The notes: generated by a model not told the origin, from the letters alone. 38,404 nucleotides of DNA from a virus (IMGVR_UViG_3300045988_089052:1-38404); one strand, 5' to 3'. Positions 1,858 through 28,419 are shown, counted from the first letter of the stretch. Translations and numbers: made by a program.

Positions 1858-1891
1858 TTGTATGATTGCACAATTTGATTGGAGTGTTTTT

Positions 1892-2224
1892 ATGTTTTAT
1901 GACATTTACAAAAAATTGTGTGAAGACAATGGAGAGAAACCATATCAATTACCATTAAAGTTGGGCGCAAAAAGCAATAGTGTAGTTGCACAATGGAAAA
2001 ATGGATCGTTGCCAAGACCAGAAATGATTCAAAAAATCGCAGATTATTTTAATGTTTCTGTTGAGTATCTGATGTTTGGGGAAGTAAATAAAGAAAAGCC
2101 CGTACCGATCAGGCACGAGCTTAAAGAAAGTGATATGGAAATTTTAACGCTTTTAAAAGAAATTAACGAGAAGCAAAAAAAAGCGATAGTCGATATGATA
2201 CATACATTTATAGAGGAGAATTAA
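1892..2224 (+). CDS. XRE-family HTH repressor (CI-like, short form with no S24 peptidase domain)
   Basis: The ORF track starts it at 1862. I prefer ATG 1892, which has GGAG 9 nt upstream. The HTH is KLGAKSNSVVAQWKNGSLPRPEMIQKIADYFNVSVEYL. Confidence 0.75.
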   Translation: MFYDIYKKLCEDNGEKPYQLPLKLGAKSNSVVAQWKNGSLPRPEMIQKIADYFNVSVEYLMFGEVNKEKPVPIRHELKESDMEILTLLKEINEKQKKAIVDMIHTFIEEN

Positions 2225-2227
2225 TCA

Positions 2228-2533
2228 ATGAAATGGTATGAATTTCATATTCTAAAACAATTAAGCAAAGATGCTGTAAAGGTAAACAAATGGAACAAGA
2301 AAATTATAGATAATCTAAAGCGTTTCGGTTATGTAGACTCTTTAGGTGTCGCACCAAAAGGGCCGGCCAAAGGGAAAGAATGTGTTTTAATAAATGATTT
2401 TGGAGTAGAATATTGGAATAAGATGAAAAAAGAGCAAAAAGAAGATAGAAAATTCTGGATTGCTATCTTGATGAATCCCATATCTGCTATTATTGGAGCT
2501 ATTGCAGGATTCATTATTTCAAATTTTTGTTAA
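2228..2533 (+). CDS. Hypothetical protein with a C-terminal membrane anchor
   Basis: 101 aa, 4 nt after the repressor stop. C-terminal hydrophobic stretch FWIAILMNPISAIIGAIAGFIISNF. Confidence 0.55.
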   Translation: MKWYEFHILKQLSKDAVKVNKWNKKIIDNLKRFGYVDSLGVAPKGPAKGKECVLINDFGVEYWNKMKKEQKEDRKFWIAILMNPISAIIGAIAGFIISNFC

Positions 2534-3143: not shown

Positions 3144-3686
3144 ATGTATATGAAAAAATCTTATTTTGATGGAGGATTATTACAATTAATTGGATGGAAA
3201 ATTCTGGGGTTCCTTGTTACATTTTTTACATTAGGAATTTGTTATCCATGGTCTGTTTGCATGATCTATGGATGGGAAACAAAGCATACCGTTATAAACG
3301 GTAAAAGACTTGGATTTGATGGAAAAGCAATTCAACTTTTTGGCAGCTGGATAAAATGGTTTTTGCTTACTTTTATTACGTTGGGTATATATGGCTTTTG
3401 GGTTGGTATTGCATTAAAAAAATGGAAAGTAAAACATACATATTTTATCGAAAATGAATCCGATTTAAACAAACAACCGGAAACGGTTGAGCTTTGTACA
3501 AATGCAATTCAAACGAATGTTGTTGTCCCGATTGATTTAAATGCTAATTATGAAGGCGACCCAGATGAAAACGATCCATTGCTTAATACCAACCGTACTG
3601 GTTCTATAATTTTTCTCGTATGTCTTATAGTTGCTATTATCATCTGTATTTTTACAATAATAAACATGATTTTACAGCGCATGTAA
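3144..3686 (+). CDS. DUF898/YjgN-like multi-pass membrane protein
   Basis: Repeated hairpin pattern (GWKILGFLVTFFTLGICYPW ... INGKRLGFDG ... WIKWFLLTFITLGIYGFW) plus a C-terminal TM segment. The start may be ATG 3150, which has better SD spacing. Confidence 0.55.
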   Translation: MYMKKSYFDGGLLQLIGWKILGFLVTFFTLGICYPWSVCMIYGWETKHTVINGKRLGFDGKAIQLFGSWIKWFLLTFITLGIYGFWVGIALKKWKVKHTYFIENESDLNKQPETVELCTNAIQTNVVVPIDLNANYEGDPDENDPLLNTNRTGSIIFLVCLIVAIIICIFTIINMILQRM

Positions 3687-3721: not shown

Positions 3722-4972
3722 GTGCTTTGCTCAAGATGCAAAAAAGAAATACCGAATGAAAGCATCTTTTGCAATTGGTGCGGAAAAAGGCAAACGGCTA
3801 TTGAACCAAAACAAAAAAGGAAACGTTTTAAGCGTCCAAATGGAAGCGGCACAATTTCAAAATACAGCGGGGAGCGAAAAAAGCCTTTTGTCGCTCGGCT
3901 TGACGGAAAATTAATTGGTACATTTAGAACATACGAAGAGGCCGACGAAGTTTTAACGGATATTATTGCAAGAAAACAAGCGTGCATGGACGTTATCCTA
4001 AACAAATACATCAGCACATTTACAGATGTTCATAATGCTTTTATACAAAGCAAAGAATACGAAAAAATTGGAGAAAAAGGAAAATACAGTATTGCCTCTG
4101 CATATAAACGATTCGAATCGCTGCATGATAAAGTGTTTACGAAAATCCTTGCTGCTGAATACGAATCCATTATAGATTCAGCGGTGGTATTACCGGCATA
4201 CAAAATTCGAACGCCAGAAGAAATTAAAAAGATGAGCGCAAAGGAACGTGATCGATACAATGCACTTATATCGAAACCGCAGGAACCATTAAGTTACAGT
4301 GCAAAATCGAAACTGAAACAATACATTATTCATTTATATAATACCGCAATATCAAACAAAATTGAAACCGTAAACTATGGTCAAAACATTGTACTTGATA
4401 AAGCCAGTAATAAAATTAAACGCCGAAATTTTACAAAATCTGAAAAAGATCTTCTCTACAAAAATGACAATGATGATATCGTAAAAATCATCCTTATATA
4501 TTTGGAATTAGGATTTCGACTTAACGAATTATTATCATTACCCACATCTCGTATTGATTTTGAAAATGATATCATTCAATGGGGAAGTAAAACAGATGCC
4601 GGAAAGGATAGAATAATCCCGCTTGTAGGTAAAGCACGTGAATATGTAAAATATTTTTATGGAGATGGAAGCCAAAAATTTTTGATTGAGCGCAACGGTA
4701 AGAGAATCCGAGAAGAATATTTTAGAATACATATGTTTTACCCTACGCTTGACCGATTAGGTATTGAATATTCAGACGAAAACAGCCGTTTTAACGTTAT
4801 TACCCCGCACCGAATTAGGCACACATTTGCGGCAGATAGTGTAAAGGCTGGTGTGGCACCAGAGGCGTTAAAAGAGATTATCGGGCATGCACAGTACAGT
4901 ACCACAATCAACAAGTACAACGATGATGTCGATGTCGATTACCTCAAAAAAGAGCTTCAGAAAAAGGGATGA
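3722..4972 (+). CDS. int: Tyrosine integrase with an N-terminal zinc-ribbon (GTG start)
   Basis: The C-terminal catalytic region ITPHRIRHTFAADSV...GHAQYSTTINKY carries the R..H-x-x-R..H..Y signature. The N-terminus is CSRCKKEIPNESIFCNWCG. attP lies immediately downstream. Confidence 0.9.
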   Translation: MLCSRCKKEIPNESIFCNWCGKRQTAIEPKQKRKRFKRPNGSGTISKYSGERKKPFVARLDGKLIGTFRTYEEADEVLTDIIARKQACMDVILNKYISTFTDVHNAFIQSKEYEKIGEKGKYSIASAYKRFESLHDKVFTKILAAEYESIIDSAVVLPAYKIRTPEEIKKMSAKERDRYNALISKPQEPLSYSAKSKLKQYIIHLYNTAISNKIETVNYGQNIVLDKASNKIKRRNFTKSEKDLLYKNDNDDIVKIILIYLELGFRLNELLSLPTSRIDFENDIIQWGSKTDAGKDRIIPLVGKAREYVKYFYGDGSQKFLIERNGKRIREEYFRIHMFYPTLDRLGIEYSDENSRFNVITPHRIRHTFAADSVKAGVAPEALKEIIGHAQYSTTINKYNDDVDVDYLKKELQKKG

Positions 4973-5073: not shown

Positions 5074-5122
5074 CTGCTTCCCAAGCAGAAGGTGGCGAGT
5101 TCGAGCCTCGTAATCCGCTCCA
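5074..5122 (+). other. 3' portion of a tRNA-Gly(CCC): anticodon arm to CCA, with no 5' half
   Basis: Anticodon stem CTGC/GCAG with loop TTCCCAA (anticodon CCC). Variable loop AGGTG. T arm GCGAG-TTCGAGC-CTCGT. 3' acceptor strand AATCCGC, then T and CCA. The upstream sequence has no acceptor or D arm. Confidence 0.75.
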
Positions 5123-5125
5123 AAT

Positions 5126-5178
5126 AAACCGCATTACATAGCCAAAAAACGGTTATGCAATGCGGTTTTATTTTATGT
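5126..5178 (+). terminator. Rho-independent terminator after the tRNA fragment
   Basis: AAACCGCATT (5126-5135) pairs perfectly with AATGCGGTTT (5159-5168) and is followed by a T-rich run. Confidence 0.7.
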
Positions 5179-5212: not shown

Positions 5213-5509
5213 TTAATTTAAAGCTTGAATTTTCCGCATAACGCTATCATATGCCCTTGAGTTTACTACTTTTAGCGTTTCAACTAATTCATTCATAATT
5301 CTCCACACCTGAACACTGTCTTTTCCGTCGACCGCTTGCAGAAATTCGCTATCACCTGATGTGCTAAGCGGTGTGGGCTGTTTTGACTGTTGCCCAGAGA
5401 GATGGTCCCTCACTGTGTATAAATCGGCCAATTTTGAACAATTCACATAAGTTGTGTCTCGCTGCTCCAATTCAAGGATAGATTTGTCCAATTCTTCAAT
5501 TGAAATCAA
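5213..5509 (-). CDS. Hypothetical protein (last gene of the accessory island)
   Basis: 98-aa ORF whose start overlaps the stop of 5506..6075. Confidence 0.5.
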   Translation of the reverse strand: MISIEELDKSILELEQRDTTYVNCSKLADLYTVRDHLSGQQSKQPTPLSTSGDSEFLQAVDGKDSVQVWRIMNELVETLKVVNSRAYDSVMRKIQALN

Positions 5510-6075
5510 GAGATATCAACTCCGATTTTTTTAGTCTTTTTACGGTATTTTTCGTGCAGTTCGTCTTGCATTAAATAGATCGCGGACATGTCGTATTCTA
5601 TGCTTTCCAGCTTGATATGCAAGCGTTCCACGCACTTTAATTCCTTGTCCACATCCATTACAAGTTCTTTCACCTTGCAAGCAGCCGCGACTTCTCCCAG
5701 ATTGTATAAATCAGTGTAGGATTTTTCATAAAGTTTTTTGGTCTCTACCTCCCAATCCCTCCACTTAATAAATGCATCCCGGATGGCGCGCCGTTTTGTG
5801 CTGGCGTCAACTTCTTGTCTCGTATAATTTCCCCAGCTCGCAGGAATAAGCGAAGGCCCCGCCGGATGCCCGCCGGGCAAAAGCTTACCGTAATGGTTGA
5901 TGTAATATCTGTGTACAGACCGCATGCATGTTGATTCGTCAAGATAGTGGTATTCCTGCATGCGTTTAAAACCGTGCAAAGACAAAAAGTCGAAATAATC
6001 CGCCATCTGACCATGCAGCATAATGCCTTCTATCTGGTGGTTTGAAATTGCATTAAAATTTTCCGATACCGTCAC
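5506..6075 (-). CDS. Hypothetical protein with a weak ferritin-like four-helix-bundle resemblance (GTG start)
   Basis: 189 aa. IEGIMLHGQMADYFDFLSLHGFKRMQEYHYLDE...HRYYINHYGKL resembles ferritin/Dps helices A-B. Judged by eye only. Confidence 0.5.
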   Translation of the reverse strand: MTVSENFNAISNHQIEGIMLHGQMADYFDFLSLHGFKRMQEYHYLDESTCMRSVHRYYINHYGKLLPGGHPAGPSLIPASWGNYTRQEVDASTKRRAIRDAFIKWRDWEVETKKLYEKSYTDLYNLGEVAAACKVKELVMDVDKELKCVERLHIKLESIEYDMSAIYLMQDELHEKYRKKTKKIGVDIS

Positions 6076-6248
6076 TTGTTTAACACCTCCAGTATATCGG
6101 TGAGCAGCGCGATGATTTTATCATTGTCGTATTCATGCGTTTTTTGACGTTTCAAAATTTCCTGGTTTATTTCAACGTTCTGCATGTTTGCCGCAAGATT
6201 CGCGCTGTTTATTCCGATGATTGCGCGGTAATAATCCTGAGCATCCAT
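6072..6248 (-). CDS. Small hypothetical protein (58 aa), missing from the ORF track
   Basis: My own translation: MDAQDYYRAIIGINSANLAANMQNVEINQEILKRQKTHEYDNDKIIALLTDILEVLNK. It has a TAATG overlap with the upstream gene and a GTGA overlap with the downstream gene. Confidence 0.5.
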   Translation of the reverse strand: MDAQDYYRAIIGINSANLAANMQNVEINQEILKRQKTHEYDNDKIIALLTDILEVLNK

Positions 6249-6652
6249 TAAATTTTCTCAACGACCGTCGCAACGTTTGTTACGCTGGACGCGGCTCCGG
6301 TAAGAACGAGCGACAAATTGGTAACGTTAGCTCCGGACAGCATACGGATAAGAGACGAAAGGCTCATGCTTACGCTGTTTGCAGCGGCAGCAACAGTTTC
6401 AGATGCCGTAGCGCCCGGAACGGCCACACCGTCCCGAAACAACGACACTGTGACAGTGCCTGCGGCTGTAGGAACAGCGGTAACGCTGATGTCAACATCG
6501 TAGTAACCGGGATTCGTGATAGAGATGACATTGCCGGAAAGAGCCAATCCGCAGCCGTAGCGGCGGACAATAGAACCAAGAGCAACCGTACCGTCTACGG
6601 CGACTGTTTGAGCCGTGGTATTCGCGGTATAAAGAGCAGCACTGCAAGACAT
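6248..6652 (-). CDS. Small BclA-C-terminal / C1q-TNF-like jelly-roll candidate
   Basis: 134 aa. NTTAQTVAVDGTVALG...ISITNPGYYDVDISVTAV...VSLFRDGVAVPGA...NLSLVLTG has the alternating beta-strand pattern I associate with BclA_C-type domains. There are no collagen repeats. GAAAGGAG precedes the ATG. Confidence 0.5.
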   Translation of the reverse strand: MSCSAALYTANTTAQTVAVDGTVALGSIVRRYGCGLALSGNVISITNPGYYDVDISVTAVPTAAGTVTVSLFRDGVAVPGATASETVAAAANSVSMSLSSLIRMLSGANVTNLSLVLTGAASSVTNVATVVEKI

Positions 6653-6672
6653 AAAAAGTCTCCTTTCAAATT

Positions 6673-6700
6673 AAAAAAGGGCGGAGCATTCGCCCCGCCC
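6673..6700 (-). terminator. Rho-independent terminator between 6726..7295 and 6248..6652
   Basis: Minus-strand RNA GGGCGG-ggcgaaugcu-CCGCCC-UUUUUU, about 25 nt before the next ATG. Confidence 0.65.
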
Positions 6701-6725
6701 AAAAACCTCGGCCAGCAGGGCCTTA

Positions 6726-7295
6726 TCAGATGTTGGAGCAGCCACAGCCGCAGCCGCCGAAAAACGGGTTCATGCCTGCGCCAAATGTAGTAGCAGTCGG
6801 ATACCGGATAACGCCGCACATGGCGTTGTTCAGCTCCAGCGCGCTGACTTTATCGCGAAGAGCCTGCATCTCATTTTGCTGGATGAGCGCACGCGTCTGT
6901 TCGCCCTCGGCATGAACCGCCGTGGTGATCGCGCATGTGTTTCGGTCGCCCTGCGCTGCAAGGTTCGCTACAGCAAGCTGCGTATTGCAGCAGCAATCGG
7001 CAAGCTGCATCTGGATCGATCTGCCCTCGTTCAAAATGCTGTTGTTCAGCGCAAACGTGCTGTCACATACACCATTTCCAATGCTGGCAAGACGGTCGTT
7101 GATGCCCTGGAACTGCTGGCCGTACAGAATTTCCTGCTGCGTCGCAGCCGTGGCACCGTCATTTTTCCCGCTAAACCCGTTTGTACCAAACAGGAAAAGG
7201 AAAAGAATAATGATCCACCAGGCGCCGCCGCCAAAGCCTTCCGCGCCGCCGCCTTCCGTCACGGCTCGAATATCAGAGAGAGAATAGTTGTCCAT
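6726..7295 (-). CDS. Single-pass membrane protein, Cys-rich, with a C-terminal GGCGCGCSNI tail
   Basis: 189 aa. A Gly-rich N-terminus is followed by AWWIIILFLFLFG, which is YjcZ-like in style. It contains the CCC triplet in LADCCCNTQ. The gene is GC-rich relative to its neighbours. Confidence 0.6.
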   Translation of the reverse strand: MDNYSLSDIRAVTEGGGAEGFGGGAWWIIILFLFLFGTNGFSGKNDGATAATQQEILYGQQFQGINDRLASIGNGVCDSTFALNNSILNEGRSIQMQLADCCCNTQLAVANLAAQGDRNTCAITTAVHAEGEQTRALIQQNEMQALRDKVSALELNNAMCGVIRYPTATTFGAGMNPFFGGCGCGCSNI

Positions 7296-7345
7296 AGATA
7301 TCTCCTTTCAAAAGTTTTGTTTATCATAAACCGTGTGCACCCGGT

Positions 7346-7573
7346 CTACTTCAAAAAAGATTGCAAGCCTTGCGCTTGCTGCTTCAGTTGTTCAAATTGG
7401 GCCTGGGACATTTTCCCGCTTTTCAGCAGCTCATTCACCATTGCTTCAGGATCTTTCCCTTGCATCTGCTGCCTGAATTGCGAAAACTGTTGCAAAAGCT
7501 GCATGGGGTTATTCCCTTGCATCTGCGGGCTTGACGACATCCCTTTGGCCAGCATTGACAGCATAGGATTCAT
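7346..7573 (-). CDS. Gln/Met-rich small hypothetical protein
   Basis: 75 aa. GGAGGA lies 8 nt upstream of ATG 7573. The start sits 65 nt inside the preceding ORF. Confidence 0.5.
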   Translation of the reverse strand: MNPMLSMLAKGMSSSPQMQGNNPMQLLQQFSQFRQQMQGKDPEAMVNELLKSGKMSQAQFEQLKQQAQGLQSFLK

Positions 7574-7904
7574 TGAGCATTTCCTCCAATCGTTTAATCC
7601 TGTTTTCCAACGTTCTTACATCTACAGCCGGTTCCGGCTGGTACGGGCTTATTGTATATGGAGTAACCGTTTTATAGCCCGCGCCGTCCGTTTGCGCAAG
7701 CCAAACAATGGGTGCAGTATCATCCATCAAAATTACGTTGCTATTCGGTGCCATTTGCAGCGCTTTTGCACCATTTTCTCCGTTTACGTGAATCACTTCA
7801 TATCTTGGTATCTGCGCATTTTCCATAGCGCTTAAACGGCTTTGATAAGGGCTTACAACTTGAAAATTTTGCGGCTGCTGGTATCCCATAAATTGGTTAT
7901 ACAT
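7509..7904 (-). CDS. Hypothetical protein
   Basis: 131-aa ORF with a Q/P/Y-rich N-terminus, then YEVIHVNGENGAKALQMAPNSNVILMDDTAPIVWLAQTDGAGYKTV. No family recognised. Confidence 0.5.
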   Translation of the reverse strand: MYNQFMGYQQPQNFQVVSPYQSRLSAMENAQIPRYEVIHVNGENGAKALQMAPNSNVILMDDTAPIVWLAQTDGAGYKTVTPYTISPYQPEPAVDVRTLENRIKRLEEMLNESYAVNAGQRDVVKPADARE

Positions 7905-7918
7905 AATGCCTCACGCCT

Positions 7919-8155
7919 TTACACAGATTTTATTTCATGTTCTCTTTCCACAAGTTCCGCTTCCAGTTCAGTAAGCGTACCGTATACGCAGTGCTTGAAA
8001 TAGATATCAAGCGCGGTTTCCAAATCGTATCCTCCTACAGTCATTAAGCGGCGCACATAGTCCATGAAAAACATCCTTTCCGTGATTTCATCATAGCGCA
8101 AAAAAGCCCCCGGCCTGTCCAAAATACGGACAAGTCGGGGACGATTTAAGTGCAT
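7919..8155 (-). CDS. Hypothetical protein (start uncertain)
   Basis: 78-aa ORF with no SD at 8155. An internal ATG (MDYVRRL...) has AAAGGA about 9 nt upstream. Confidence 0.4.
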   Translation of the reverse strand: MHLNRPRLVRILDRPGAFLRYDEITERMFFMDYVRRLMTVGGYDLETALDIYFKHCVYGTLTELEAELVEREHEIKSV

Positions 8156-8162
8156 ATTTTGC

Positions 8163-8363
8163 TTAATATGGAAGTGTTGTTTTACCTCTGATGGATTTTA
8201 GCACATTGTTTATTGTGCCGCGGCTTACGTCCAGTTCAGCGGCAATCGATTCAATCTCCCATCCTTTACGGTAGAACAATTCAAACACGCACTTTTCGCG
8301 GTCTGTGAGCCATTGGTAAGAGGCCATCGCCTCAAGTTGATGGACCGTAAACCTGTATTTCAT
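8163..8363 (-). CDS. Sigma-70 region-4 / LuxR-type HTH-only protein
   Basis: 66 aa. LTDREKCVFELFYRKGWEIESIAAELDVSRGTINNVLKSIRGK has the region-4.2 HTH pattern. Confidence 0.6.
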   Translation of the reverse strand: MKYRFTVHQLEAMASYQWLTDREKCVFELFYRKGWEIESIAAELDVSRGTINNVLKSIRGKTTLPY

Positions 8364-8381
8364 ATTCTTACCTTCAGAATA

Positions 8382-8561
8382 TTATAAAATATCGTCGATT
8401 TTACATTTTAAAGCTTCAGCTAAGGCTTTCGCCATTTTTAAAGATGGGTCATTTGTTCCATTTTCCCATCTTGCTACGCATACTTGAGAACACCCTACTT
8501 TTTCAGCAAGTTCAACTTGTGTTAGGCCTGCTTTTTTACGAACTTCTTTTAATTTTTCCAT
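8382..8561 (-). CDS. XRE-family HTH protein (59 aa), missing from the ORF track
   Basis: My own translation: MEKLKEVRKKAGLTQVELAEKVGCSQVCVARWENGTNDPSLKMAKALAEALKCKIDDIL. It has a TAATG overlap with the upstream gene. Confidence 0.7.
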   Translation of the reverse strand: MEKLKEVRKKAGLTQVELAEKVGCSQVCVARWENGTNDPSLKMAKALAEALKCKIDDIL

Positions 8562-8854
8562 TACGAAAACCTCGGAATTTTGAACTGTGCTGTATCGCGG
8601 TCTGGGCGCTCAACGCGAATTTCAAGGAGCTCAATATCGGTGTTACACATGTCAAATTCTTCATCGTATGAGCGCTTCAAATCGATGTAGTATTCCCACT
8701 TCCCGATTTTATCATCTTGACCAACGACCCATTGTTCCCCATCTTCTTGGCACTCAGTTGCAGCCTGTTCGATTTCTTCCCATACAGCTGCGCCGTCTAC
8801 GACGAGGCCAGTGTTTTTCAAAAAGAAGTCTTCAAGTATTGTGTTTCTATTCAT
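8561..8854 (-). CDS. Strongly acidic hypothetical protein
   Basis: 97 aa. I count about 24 Asp/Glu against about 11 Lys/Arg. It is translationally coupled to the XRE gene. Confidence 0.55.
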   Translation of the reverse strand: MNRNTILEDFFLKNTGLVVDGAAVWEEIEQAATECQEDGEQWVVGQDDKIGKWEYYIDLKRSYDEEFDMCNTDIELLEIRVERPDRDTAQFKIPRFS

Positions 8855-8881
8855 AACTCATTCTCCTTTTTTTGTTTAAAA

Positions 8882-9184
8882 TTAAAAGCTCTCACAGCAG
8901 GACTTTGGAACCCAGTGCTTAACTGTGCCAAACTCGCTGAACCACTTAACAAGGATTGCTTTTTCTGTTTCTCGCTCAATCTTAGCATCGTCCGAAACGC
9001 TGATCGCATAGCGCTCGCCGCTCGTGAACTCTTTATTTAAAAACCAGCTTTTTACAACGATCTTGTGGGCAAGAGCCTTAGCGCAAGCCCACGCAGCTTT
9101 CAGGCTTTCAGAAAATGTACGTCCGCCTTCGCGGTAAAAGCTCCAAGCGTCTTTCATGATCTGGATAAGATTGAACTTTTTCAT
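8882..9184 (-). CDS. Hypothetical protein (first gene of the accessory island)
   Basis: 100 aa with GGAGGAATCAGAAATG. The C-terminal ETEKAILVKW...WVPKS motif is common in small phage/plasmid proteins of unknown function. Confidence 0.55.
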   Translation of the reverse strand: MKKFNLIQIMKDAWSFYREGGRTFSESLKAAWACAKALAHKIVVKSWFLNKEFTSGERYAISVSDDAKIERETEKAILVKWFSEFGTVKHWVPKSCCESF

Positions 9185-9225
9185 TTCTGATTCCTCCGTT
9201 TGTTCCCTTGTCTATGTCTATATTA

Positions 9226-9243
9226 TATAACAAGTTTGTTATA
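9226..9243. promoter_or_regulatory. Perfect palindrome TATAACAA-gt-TTGTTATA overlapping a TATAAT box
   Basis: 8-bp arms, lying between the late terminator and gene 9184. The minus strand reads ...TTGTTATATAAT..., which contains a -10 hexamer. Confidence 0.55.
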
Positions 9244-9251
9244 AAACATGT

Positions 9252-9287
9252 AAAAAAACAAGGGGCTACCCAAGCGGATAGCCCCTA
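9252..9287 (-). terminator. Rho-independent terminator ending the late/lysis operon
   Basis: Minus-strand RNA AGGGGCUA-uccgcuuggg-UAGCCCCU followed by UGUUUUUUU, 5 nt after the holin stop. Confidence 0.85.
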
Positions 9288-9291
9288 AGGA

Positions 9292-9585
9292 TTACTCCGT
9301 TTTGTTTTTTTGTTTAAGAATCTGGTTTACATACACGCTGCACCCAGCTGCAAGCACACCCTGCACAATGGCCGTAAACAGCGCCAGAACGACGCTTTGC
9401 CATCCGGTAATGGTGGAGGTCGATATTACCCACAAAGCCGCCAAAACGATGCCAGCAGCGCCCAGCGTAATGGGGATATTCTTATCCTTTACGGCTTGCG
9501 CATTTTTCAGTGCCATGCCCAAAAAGTAGAGCACAACGGGCAGCACCGCAAGCTCCGGTTTGATATAGTTCATAATCTGTTCCAT
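9292..9585 (-). CDS. Holin
   Basis: 97 aa with three hydrophobic segments and a charged C-terminus (KQKNKTE). KPELAVLPVVLYFLGMALK...IPITLGAAGIVLAALWV resembles A118/phiLC3-type holins. It is adjacent to the endolysin. Confidence 0.8.
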   Translation of the reverse strand: MEQIMNYIKPELAVLPVVLYFLGMALKNAQAVKDKNIPITLGAAGIVLAALWVISTSTITGWQSVVLALFTAIVQGVLAAGCSVYVNQILKQKNKTE

Positions 9586-9599
9586 ATGTTCCTCCTACG

Positions 9600-9848
9600 T
9601 TATTTCTGTTCCAAAAGCGTAATGCGCTTCTCGTGATTTTCAATCCTGCCATCCTGCTCGTCGTTGTGCTCCCAAAGCCGGCGGTGACTTTCTCTCGCAG
9701 ACTTTTTCTGCTCTTGCATGTCGTTTTTCAACGTATCAAGCAACACCGTCAGTTTTGTGAGGTTGCTGTTGAGTTTAATAACCGGAGCGCCTACTGTAGC
9801 AAGCAGGCCAACCAGAGCAACAAGCACTGTTATAACAGTCCATTCCAT
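9600..9848 (-). CDS. Membrane-anchored coiled-coil protein, lysis accessory (XhlA-like by position and architecture)
   Basis: 82 aa with an N-terminal TM segment (VITVLVALVGLLATVGAPVI) followed by a charged coiled coil. It sits between the endolysin and the holin. Confidence 0.45.
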   Translation of the reverse strand: MEWTVITVLVALVGLLATVGAPVIKLNSNLTKLTVLLDTLKNDMQEQKKSARESHRRLWEHNDEQDGRIENHEKRITLLEQK

Positions 9849-9853
9849 GGAGG

Positions 9854-10564
9854 TTATACCTCCTTTATATCCAAGTATTTACCGTTGGAATCTTCAATGC
9901 ACGCCCATCCTCCAGAACCCTCATCGGTAAGGAGGAAAGCCCAGCCGTTTCGGGTCTGTTTCAGGTCGTATACTTTCCCTTTAACGAGCGTTGCAATGGC
10001 ATCGTTAGCGTTGAAGTCGTCCGCCTTTGGATATGGGCGCAATCTCAAACCATCCACAAGCACCGTAGCTTTGTAAAGCTTGTCCACATCTTCCGAAGGA
10101 TGGTCAAGCGTATCATTGCCGTTGTAAGTAGCTGCTTTATTCGGCAAATCGCTCCACGCGGACGGCTCAACAGCTGTGCCATTTACCTGTACCTCAAAGT
10201 GCAGGTGACGGCCTGTAACCTGCCCCGTGCTGCCAGCAACGCCAATTACATCGCCCTGACGTACCGTTTTCCCAACTTTCACGGTAATGGTTTTCAGGTG
10301 CTGGTAAATTTCGACCACGCCCGGCGCTGTCTGCACCTTTACCAGATTGCCGCGTCCACCGTTATAACCTGTGCTCACAGCTGTTACCGTTCCGCCCGTC
10401 ACCTCCCGAACAGCCCATGCGCTTTCGGGCAGTGCCTGTCCGGCCTGTTGCGTCGGAACAATATCCTGCCCCTTATGCTGCTCCTTGATGAGACGGCCAT
10501 TATACCAGTATTCTCGGTATCCGTAAGGGCTTGTAATTCTGTTGATTCCTGCAAATGGTGTCAT
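9854..10564 (-). CDS. Endolysin: M23 peptidase domain plus a C-terminal SH3b-like wall-binding domain
   Basis: HKGQDI (HxxxD) and GRHLHFEV (HxH) are the M23 zinc motifs. The C-terminal ~70 aa (YKATVLVDGLRLRPYP...GWAFL...GWACIED) looks SH3-like. Confidence 0.85.
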   Translation of the reverse strand: MTPFAGINRITSPYGYREYWYNGRLIKEQHKGQDIVPTQQAGQALPESAWAVREVTGGTVTAVSTGYNGGRGNLVKVQTAPGVVEIYQHLKTITVKVGKTVRQGDVIGVAGSTGQVTGRHLHFEVQVNGTAVEPSAWSDLPNKAATYNGNDTLDHPSEDVDKLYKATVLVDGLRLRPYPKADDFNANDAIATLVKGKVYDLKQTRNGWAFLLTDEGSGGWACIEDSNGKYLDIKEV

Positions 10565-28342: not shown

Positions 28343-28419
28343 TGGAGAAAACGGGATTTGAACCCGTGAACGCTACCAGGCTATACCTTTAAGCTGCTGT
28401 GCCGCCCAGCTCTTTCTCC
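28343..28419 (-). ncRNA. tRNA-like element without a canonical anticodon arm
   Basis: Acceptor stem GGAGAAA/TTTCTCC (7 bp). D arm GCTG-GGCGGCA-CAGC. T arm ACGGG-TTCAAAT-CCCGT. Discriminator A, with no encoded CCA. The 23 nt in the anticodon position form only GCU/AGC plus a mini-hairpin AGGU-aua-GCCU. Confidence 0.5.

Follow-up and report, generated by a model that had tools for sequence, protein, structure and literature searches.

The viral contig IMGVR_UViG_3300045988_089052 (38,404 nucleotides, hereafter the window) is a complete, circularly permuted genome of a temperate phage of about 38.4 kb, of which permuted contigs of 38,585 and 38,447 bp are also known. Between the terminator of its late operon and a bidirectional hairpin on the integrase side, a six-frame list of open reading frames (ORFs) contains twelve co-directional minus-strand genes, termed g01 to g12 here, which run from 9184 down to 5213 (Table 1). 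Comparison with other genomes reveals that this block is a mosaic with a variable front end, and that the unit which recurs is a four-gene core comprising g06, g07, g08, a terminator hairpin and g09, in that order. A search for near-identical sequences among the GenBank phages returned no match to the window, and its version of the g08 protein is carried solely by contigs of at most 50 kb.

The twelve genes are separated by intergenic distances of -65 to +73 nucleotides (nt), with TAATG junctions at g02/g03 and g09/g10, a GTGA junction at g10/g11 and a TTGA junction at g11/g12. Shine-Dalgarno-like sequences were seen for ten of the twelve, the exceptions being g04 and g05. The hairpin that closes the block folds far better than shuffled versions of itself, with minimum free energies of -27.3 and -22.9 kcal/mol on the two strands (z = -5.0 and -5.7). 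The tRNA fragment beyond it aligns to the 3' halves of the tRNA-Ser genes that flank related prophages and is presumed, from this similarity, to be the core of the phage attachment site (attP); a complete tRNA was not found at 5078-5125. The G+C content reaches 0.56 at 6501-7000, within g08 and g09, as against 0.45 window-wide, and at third codon positions it reaches 0.62 in g07 and 0.66 in g08, as opposed to 0.18 in g03, a value atypical of the window. This mosaic is real, and amino-acid composition explains only a part of it (the second-position G+C content of g09 is 0.55). The ORF list and the upstream terminator agree with the initial annotation of the locus as twelve tightly packed minus-strand genes behind a strong terminator, and its XRE, sigma-region-4, BclA_C-like and ferritin-like assignments, as well as the internal terminator, the gene overlaps and the uneven base composition, are all borne out. 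Its description of the block as accessory, devoid of virion, lysis or replication functions, likewise holds, as none of g01-g12 matched the structural, lysis or replication categories of PHROGs. No holin, antiholin, spanin or endolysin family of Pfam or PHROGs was matched either, the real holin and endolysin being encoded upstream. The defence models of PADLOC-DB gave no match for g01, g02, g05-g09, g11 and g12, and for g04 only generic helix-turn-helix (HTH) models (CasR/CARF HTH parts). When the block was scanned with Rfam, the hairpins between g08 and g09 gave a suhB/mmgR match at the level of chance (E = 0.53), and nothing else was found.

Table 1. Features of the accessory block and of its immediate surroundings in the window
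Feature	Position	Strand	Description
Endolysin	9854-10564	minus	Peptidase_M23; late operon, upstream of the block
XhlA-like protein	9600-9848	minus	82 amino acids (aa); late operon
Holin	9292-9585	minus	Hol44; last gene of the late operon
Terminator	9261-9286	minus	Intrinsic terminator of the late (lysis) operon, directly after the holin gene; 11-bp stem with 7 GC pairs, T-run
Putative promoter/operator	9222-9243	minus	-10-like TATAAT (9227-9222) overlapping the perfect palindrome TATAACAA-NN-TTGTTATA (9226-9243)
g01	8882-9184	minus	100 aa, basic; phrog_12732 (unknown function), E = 2.8e-12
g02	8561-8854	minus	97 aa, acidic, pI 4.2; coupled to g03 through TAATG
g03	8382-8561	minus	59-aa XRE/Cro-type HTH protein; Pfam HTH_3, E = 1.4e-18, 67.1 bits (cut-off 23)
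g04	8163-8363	minus	66-aa single-domain HTH protein of the sigma-70 region-4 / LuxR-GerE type
g05	7919-8155	minus	78-aa ORF, start uncertain; 60 or 48 aa in public gene calls
g06	7509-7904	minus	131 aa; Q/N/Y-rich low-complexity N-terminus, small alpha/beta domain (DGAGY motif), long C-terminal helix
g07	7346-7573	minus	75 aa, Met/Gln-rich, helical; phrog_22984 (unknown function), E = 7e-17
g08	6726-7295	minus	189 aa; acidic N-tail, Gly-flanked hydrophobic segment AWWIIILFLFLF, Gln/Asn-rich region, Cys-rich C-terminus
Two-hairpin element	6653-6725	minus	Small 4-bp hairpin, then strong GC hairpin (6700-6679) with T-run, then ribosome-binding site of g09; terminator or attenuator inside the block
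g09	6248-6652	minus	134 aa; stand-alone BclA-C / C1q-TNF-like jelly-roll starting at residue 8
g10	6072-6248	minus	58 aa; coupled to g09 (TAATG) and g11 (GTGA)
g11	5506-6075	minus	189 aa; remote ferritin-like four-helix-bundle protein, optional extension
g12	5213-5509	minus	98 aa, helical; N-terminal segment common to DUF7841-type proteins
Bidirectional terminator-like hairpin	5127-5175	both	Inverted repeat at about 5129-5168; closes the block and the integrase/tRNA side
tRNA fragment	5078-5125	plus	3' ~48 nt of a class II (Ser/Leu-type) tRNA: variable arm, T arm, acceptor, CCA
Tyrosine integrase	3722-4972	plus	Phage_integrase, E = 3.2e-19; convergent with the cassette

A scan for g08 recovered 72 loci in IMG/VR, 72 more in GTDB genomes and 18 GenBank phage records, and the co-occurrence of the remaining genes was followed by tblastn across loci and by jackhmmer on the ORFs of 151 g08-containing loci. 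In these 151 loci g08 is accompanied by g06 (138 loci), g07 (113) and g09 (127), invariably on the same strand and in a fixed order with fixed offsets, g06 and g07 lying upstream of g08 and g09 downstream. Co-occurrence of the island genes in other genomes had been set beforehand as a test, and g06-g09 do occur together, joined less often by g04, g11 and g12. The idea of a single twelve-gene island fares less well, with all twelve genes found together only in near-identical genomes. The block is better described as having two layers: a lineage-specific front end (g01-g03 and perhaps g05), and a widespread, horizontally mobile accessory cassette that comprises g04, g06-g07-g08, the hairpin, g09 and, optionally, g10-g11-g12 or a DUF7841-type protein.

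The carriers are mostly Clostridia, including Oscillospiraceae, Lachnospiraceae, Acutalibacteraceae, Christensenella and Clostridium. Further carriers are Bulleidia and other Bacilli/Erysipelotrichales, Selenomonadaceae/Anaerovibrio (Negativicutes), Collinsella (on contigs of up to 289 kb) and Mollicutes/Mycoplasmatota. The best match comes from a metagenome-assembled genome (MAG) of Dysosmobacter, with 65% identity (82% with the nearest member of the family). The host assignment of MAGs may err on short contigs, and mis-binning probably accounts for the short contigs placed in Bacteroides and Methanobrevibacter. Among cultured phages, the whole phage collection yielded the cassette in only six records, all of Clostridium perfringens phages.

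The g08 family comprises at least 1,431 clusters at 50% identity and more than 6,392 at 90%, none of them annotated; among the matches listed, its members range from about 80 to 270 aa and are free of long fusions. The hydrophobic core GGAWWIIILFLF is nearly invariant in the family alignment, the N-tail preceding it has a charge of -3, and the Gln/Asn-rich region holds an invariant CCC. On the strength of these features g08 is presumed to be a membrane anchor. Neither Pfam, NCBIfam and PADLOC nor the PDB, the latter searched with both the single sequence and a profile, yielded a match, the only NCBIfam hit at E <= 0.1 being a chance one to EhuB. An earlier description of g08 as YjcZ-style did not stand, as the NCBIfam YjcZ model was not matched and the likeness is compositional, i.e., a Gly-rich sequence with a hydrophobic stretch. 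The AlphaFold2 (AF2) model of g08 is unusable (predicted local distance difference test, pLDDT, of 44), probably because the input alignment was shallow, with a mean column identity of 79%. Signal peptides, as read from the sequences, are absent from g06-g09 and from every other protein of the block. In C. perfringens phage CPD1 (locus L156, 23569-24816) there are two tandem ORFs of the size of g08, CPD1_038 (207 aa) and CPD1_039 (205 aa), of which only CPD1_039 was matched to g08; related phages have one.

The g06 family, with 2,171 clusters at 90% identity, has a confidently modelled core (AF2 pLDDT of about 94), for which Foldseek found no match in the PDB at E <= 0.001; its profile likewise gave nothing significant against the PDB. 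In BFVD it retrieves only uncharacterised viral homologues, which belong to records named Siphoviridae, Myoviridae and Podoviridae. The g07 gene, which public gene calls omit while shortening g05, overlaps the 3' end of g06 by 65 nt and is preceded by a GGAGG ribosome-binding site of its own; its N-terminus is conserved in the family alignment, and its profile finds nothing significant in the PDB. Most of the loci checked on viral contigs have an overlap of 47-104 nt, unusually long for phage genes, with g07 in the +1 frame relative to g06 and a poorly conserved overlapped tail of g06; the overlap amounts to just 8 nt in the annotated C. perfringens phage 17DYC and 4 nt in Dulem virus 36. A programmed frameshift fusing g06 to g07 was considered and rejected, since g07 possesses a conserved Met of its own in addition to the GGAGG sequence.

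Between g08 and g09, per-sequence hairpin detection located a strong GC hairpin in 62 of 78 unique spacers, 55 of these hairpins having tetraloops and 50 T-rich tails. The 62 hairpins are nonetheless built from 35 distinct stem sequences, which indicates that the structure is kept while the sequence drifts. A consensus fold of the MAFFT-aligned spacers by RNAalifold contained just 6 pairs, since the alignment misplaced the stems, and the detection was therefore run sequence by sequence. From the pattern of the 62 hairpins, the internal terminator is a built-in feature of the cassette and no local accident. The small hairpin that precedes it falls into two sequence classes in the window and the spacers of loci L001-L149, (C/G)GCCC-N3-5-GG(C/G)CG(A/G)GG and CGCT-N-TAACA-GCG. 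The 3' half of the small hairpin, GGCGAGG, resembles the start of the 5' arm of the terminator, GGCGGGG, and an alternative pairing of the attenuation type would therefore be possible.

The product of the gene behind this hairpin, g09, is supported as a remote homologue of the BclA_C/C1q-like domains by sequence profiles. It matches the Pfam BclA_C model (PF18573) with E = 3.5e-6 and 27.4 bits, under the gathering cut-off of 38 bits; the same model is matched by 13 of 23 g09 relatives, and the family profile retrieves BclA crystal structures from the PDB at E = 1.8e-4, a search that gave no match with the single sequence. Like the C-terminal domain of BclA, the protein of the exosporium nap of Bacillus and Clostridioides (1WCK, 2Z5W), the g09 family aligns over about 80-115 residues and has the size of a single jelly-roll. 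Unlike BclA, g09 and its relatives are devoid of collagen-like GXX repeats and of an exosporium-targeting N-terminus, are phage-encoded, including in hosts that we take to be non-sporulating, and are always paired with g08. An identity with the Ena (DUF3992) endospore appendages was dropped, as there was no match to Ena proteins in Pfam or the PDB.

This relationship was among the grounds for the proposal, made when the locus was first annotated, of a link to the spore or cell surface. In its full form, the cassette would be conversion cargo consisting of a BclA-like nap protein (g09), a Cys-rich basal protein (g08), a GerE-like regulator (g04, whose score lies near the GerE cut-off) and a CotJC-like protein of the ferritin fold (g11). 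The predominance of Clostridia among the carriers and the attP-adjacent site, which fits conversion genes, would agree with it. Against this, no protein of the block matches a YjcZ, Cot, Exs or Cde family in Pfam or NCBIfam, g09 has neither collagen region nor targeting sequence, and signal peptides are lacking throughout. Further, some phages have the cassette within the late operon or adjacent to replication genes, and large contigs that carry it are assigned to Collinsella (289 kb), Bulleidia, Selenomonadaceae and Mollicutes, all of which we take to be non-sporulating taxa. A spore or surface role is accordingly considered very improbable, the least favoured of the specific explanations, and the earlier proposal is not upheld.

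The Cys clusters at the C-terminus of g08 and at the N-termini of many g09 proteins may constitute a mutual contact or a metal site. They could also be accommodated by an assembly on the virion, in which g08 would form a coiled-coil shaft bearing g09 as a receptor-binding head through their Cys-rich ends, with g06 and g07 as chaperones and the hairpin setting the ratio of shaft to head. Jelly-roll heads of the C1q/TNF-like kind typically form the tips of fibres on phages and spores, and the arrangement of a major-subunit gene, a hairpin and a minor-subunit gene is a known way of setting subunit ratios. In Dulem virus 36, moreover, the cassette lies directly behind the gene for a receptor-binding protein (RBP). 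However, a complete baseplate/RBP protein of the BppU type is already encoded in the window, the usual site of the cassette is after the lysis genes and behind a terminator, g08 has a strongly conserved membrane-type hydrophobic segment, and fibre repeats are absent. Its occurrence in records of different named morphotypes, with few cultured C. perfringens phages among the carriers, also argues against a virion part, so that a fibre or decoration protein appears quite improbable.

The regulatory layer of the cassette is represented in the window by g04, which is, by its domain matches, an HTH regulator. Its residues 19-56 match region 4 of sigma-70 factors (Pfam Sigma70_r4, 30.2 bits against a cut-off of 24.1; r4_2, 27.6 against 25.7), it falls just under the cut-off of the GerE family (23.0 against 23.5 bits), and its weak PDB matches are to DesR and a sigma region 4. 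A role as a sigma factor was rejected, since only region 4 is matched and region 2, which serves in -10 recognition and core binding, is missing. Like the single-domain regulators of the GerE/LuxR and sigma-70 region-4 types, g04 consists of that HTH alone, and it differs from the GerE/LuxR and sigma-70 regulators in lacking a receiver or ligand domain and sigma region 2. A g04-type HTH gene lies upstream on the same strand in 63 of the 151 loci, mostly 1-2 kb from g08.

The region 5' of g06 also bears signs of dedicated control. Terminator-like hairpins with a T-run occur within 150 nt 5' of g06 in 52 of 121 non-redundant loci (43%) as compared with 58 of 540 control ORFs (11%). Direct repeats 11 bp apart lie upstream of g06 in 28 of 122 loci (23%) versus 6 of 707 controls (0.8%), and repeats spaced by 22 bp in 10% of the loci versus 1.3% of the controls. 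At least eight unrelated repeat motifs are involved, which track the lineage and the subtype of g04; locus L011, for instance, has three copies of GGCGTAGAT 11 bp apart. Such phased repeats mark a promoter that has a DNA-binding activator of its own, and g04 is tied to the tandem repeats of other phages by co-occurrence only. Upstream of the cassette, 26 loci encode a conserved protein of about 125 aa whose sequence follows a Cys...His...Asp pattern (YNPNP..GDCTVRA ... GHVV.V.DG.YYDTWDS) and whose gene adjoins g06 in 20 of them; it looks like a papain- or transglutaminase-like fold, has no Pfam match and is absent from the window (loci L066-068, L101, L107, L110-112, L116-119, L121, L122, L127, L128, L130, L131, L133, L136, L138, L139 and L143-146).

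Most commonly the cassette follows the lysis genes, and an integrase is encoded on the other strand 1.5-3 kb further downstream; of the 42 loci with a detected integrase relative, 39 have it in this downstream, opposite-strand arrangement. In integrated prophages the last cassette gene abuts a tRNA or tmRNA gene. Loci L149 and L151 (9733-9809) have an identical g08 and, as compared, the same upstream genes, yet in their different metagenomes they end at different tRNAs, tRNA-Arg(acg) and tRNA-Lys(ttt), which suggests variable integration sites or chimeric tRNA ends. Other arrangements exist: the cassette is placed between tail/RBP and lysis-like genes in the 55-58-kb phages (L046-058), in L060-069 and in Dulem virus 36, and between lysis and recombinase/replication genes in the C. 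perfringens phages CPD1, 17DYC and PMQ04, where about 3.4 kb separate it from the holin upstream and its neighbours are KilA and recombinase genes. The initial annotation took the attP-proximal position after the lysis genes to be the canonical site of conversion cargo; the genes do occupy that position in the window, and its variability elsewhere means that conversion cargo does not serve as a general description.

The persistent vicinity of lysis genes raises the prospect of a late lysis accessory. In this view g08 would be a bitopic membrane protein that adjusts or completes the membrane disruption by the holin, either timing it in the manner of an antiholin or disrupting the membrane itself; g06 and g07 would be cytoplasmic regulators and g09 a protein released at lysis. 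The cassette almost always adjoins lysis genes on the same strand, as in the window and in L149-151, or precedes holin/endolysin-like genes, as in L046-058, L060-069 and Dulem virus 36. In the phages of the L149 type, g04 begins 10 nt behind the holin and would be made with the late genes. Additionally, the hydrophobic segment of g08 and its Gln/Asn-rich, partly helical C-terminus are loosely like the XhlA-type protein of the window. On the other hand, similarity to holins, antiholins or spanins is lacking, a terminator often parts the cassette from the lysis genes, and in the C. perfringens phages a considerable distance separates it from the holin, as noted above. A Hol44-type holin was detected upstream in only 22 of the 151 loci, which makes a bond between the cassette and any single holin family improbable. 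The cassette is also found on contigs assigned to MAGs of Mollicutes/Mycoplasmatota, organisms that we take to be wall-less. On balance, a lysis accessory is regarded as unlikely, and it is still the nearest competitor of the explanation that is preferred below.

In terms of known kinds of genetic elements, the cassette appears closest to the phage morons, being accessory and situated between modules. Morons are independent transcription units that spread between phages, such as the one that encodes the superinfection exclusion protein gp15 of HK97 (PMC3594210). Like them, the cassette is a mobile unit at a module junction, bracketed by terminators and bearing promoter-like elements at the level of consensus matches; it is atypical in base composition, present or absent among related phages and encodes a small, presumed membrane protein, as does the gp15 moron. 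Unlike gp15, which is a single gene, it unites 4-7 conserved genes, an HTH regulator of its own and an internal terminator that is likewise conserved, and in some phages it lies inside the late operon. A search for DUF7841, BclA_C in phages and similar cassettes among the papers of the searchable library returned nothing, and no described system is known to combine these parts.

The best explanation for the block as a whole, offered tentatively, is a single transcription unit of two layers that encodes a membrane-anchored complex made for the benefit of the phage. With somewhat less assurance still, this complex may act at the cytoplasmic membrane, either against incoming phages or in the takeover of the host membrane; superinfection exclusion or a block of DNA entry is the preferred reading here, and control of the lysis step ranks next. 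Action at the membrane is placed first because of the moron-like architecture, the membrane anchor, the independence of morphotype and apparently of holin type, and the occurrence in hosts with very different envelopes. It is followed in order by the late lysis accessory, the virion fibre and the spore or surface cargo, the remainder being left to something else.

The steps of such a mechanism can be sketched as follows. The g04 protein, or an equivalent activator, would switch on a promoter that lacks a good -35 element. The g06, g07 and g08 proteins would be made at a high and similar dose through the overlap of g06 with g07 and the strong ribosome-binding sites of all three genes. The g08 protein would then insert into the membrane through its single Gly-flanked hydrophobic segment, with the acidic N-tail outside and the Cys/Gln-rich domain in the cytoplasm; an N-out/C-in topology is the simplest one because the N-tail is acidic and signal peptides are missing from all four proteins. 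The Met/Gln-rich g07 and the coiled-coil g06 would bind g08, and the C1q-like trimer of g09 would join it at a lower dose, which is set by read-through of the terminator. It is possible, if doubtful, that g04 and g06-g09 form a new phage system in this sense, i.e., an activator-driven membrane complex that is tipped by a C1q/TNF-like trimer, with the hairpins setting the ratio of its subunits.

Several observations weigh against this interpretation. Homology links none of the core proteins to a function, and PADLOC is empty as well. The topology and the oligomeric state of g08 and its contact with g09 are guesses, the model of g08 having failed. The 151 loci are related to one another, so that the above counts overstate the number of independent observations. 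A complement of 4-7 conserved proteins exceeds the needs of the known exclusion systems. The placement of the cassette inside the late operon in some phages, and of the L149-type g04 directly behind the holin, suggests very late lytic expression rather than expression from the prophage. Finally, the window itself has no repeats upstream of its g06, which starts 14 nt after g05, the control region being found 5' of g01 instead, and the promoter-like sites in a scan of the window are no more numerous than in shuffled sequence.

That control region and the genes behind it make up the front end of the block. The palindrome of the putative promoter/operator occurs as a perfect copy only once within the window genome; a promoter role for the element is inferred from consensus matching, and the palindrome presumably serves g03 as its operator. 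The XRE protein g03, which matches the P22 C2 and 434 repressors in the PDB, is a probable autoregulator acting at this site. Together with the upstream terminator, the two HTH genes and the internal terminator, the -10-like sequence and palindrome 5' of g01 agree with the earlier statement that the block has control elements of its own. Relatives of g01 were found in 6 of the 151 loci, in 5 of them inverted relative to the cassette, and relatives of g02 in 5, mostly inverted; those of g05 are restricted to near-identical genomes. The similarity of g01 to AcrIIA3_fam (14.7 bits, E = 0.023, cut-off 70) is not significant, and g02 has no family match in Pfam, PHROGs, NCBIfam or PADLOC. In locus L002 (333-6927), ORFs of 383 and 1,807 aa without a Pfam match replace g01-g03 between the holin and g04, and the cassette from g04 to g11 is 92-99% identical to that of the window.

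By its architecture, the g01-g03 segment could be a mini-operon of the acr-aca type, an analogy that is rather unlikely to hold and that would be compatible with the membrane complex proposed above. In acr-aca operons the HTH aca repressors come after the acr genes (PMC9410906). Similarly, g01-g03 consist of small basic and acidic ORFs followed by a coupled short HTH gene, lie behind a promoter-like element with an inverted repeat and occupy the distal end of the late region. They differ in showing no significant similarity to known Acr or Aca proteins, in having a transcript that would run on into g04-g12 and in having no known CRISPR context.

Downstream of the core, g10 has no detectable relatives outside near-identical genomes. 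Relatives of g11 occur downstream of the core in 10 of the 151 loci, including those of C. perfringens phages and of Dulem virus 36. A profile of the g11 family (7 relatives) matches 23 ferritin sequences in the PDB, the best being 1z4a of Thermotoga maritima (E = 4.9e-5), to which it aligns end to end (query 3-172 against chain residues 7-158), with acidic residues at the ferroxidase ligand positions E16, E47, E109 and E145. Unlike the ferritins, g11 misses the Pfam Ferritin model (E = 0.23 at best, in 1 of 7 relatives) and has no match in a single-sequence PDB search. The di-iron (ferroxidase) ligands of ferritins follow the order E, ExxH, E, ExxH, and in g11 this site is incomplete. Only H21, E109 and E145 are invariant in the family, which makes enzymatic iron oxidation by g11 doubtful; E47 is mostly kept, and a Cys, Ala or Lys takes the place of the helix-B His ligand. 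The g12 protein, like those of g05 and g10, has no informative match in Pfam, PHROGs or NCBIfam. The slot of g12 is filled by the g12 family in 18 of the 151 loci and by the DUF7841 type in 29 (43 in union), in all cases downstream and on the same strand.

Elsewhere in the window, the lysogeny region adjoining the integrase includes ORFs at 3144-3686 (+) and 1862-2533 (+), which encode a membrane protein of 180 aa, weakly similar to DUF898/DUF6693, and a 120-aa HTH_3 protein that is probably the repressor. Between the early and the packaging regions, Rfam reports a tRNA gene at 28343-28419 on the minus strand (37.8 bits, above the gathering score), on which ARAGORN is silent.

The cassette is common in the phages of gut Firmicutes, and yet for three of the four core proteins the only families on record, if any, are functionally unassigned PHROGs. 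Assigning a function to the cassette would annotate thousands of prophages and could expose a new mechanism of exclusion, lysis control or anti-defence in the virome of the human gut. Its presence in the cultivable C. perfringens phages CPD1, 17DYC, PMQ04 and HMD-PC1 makes genetics feasible. If the possible new phage system outlined above is real, g04 and g06-g09 would represent a new kind of superinfection exclusion or host-membrane takeover that is very widespread in Gram-positive gut bacteria.

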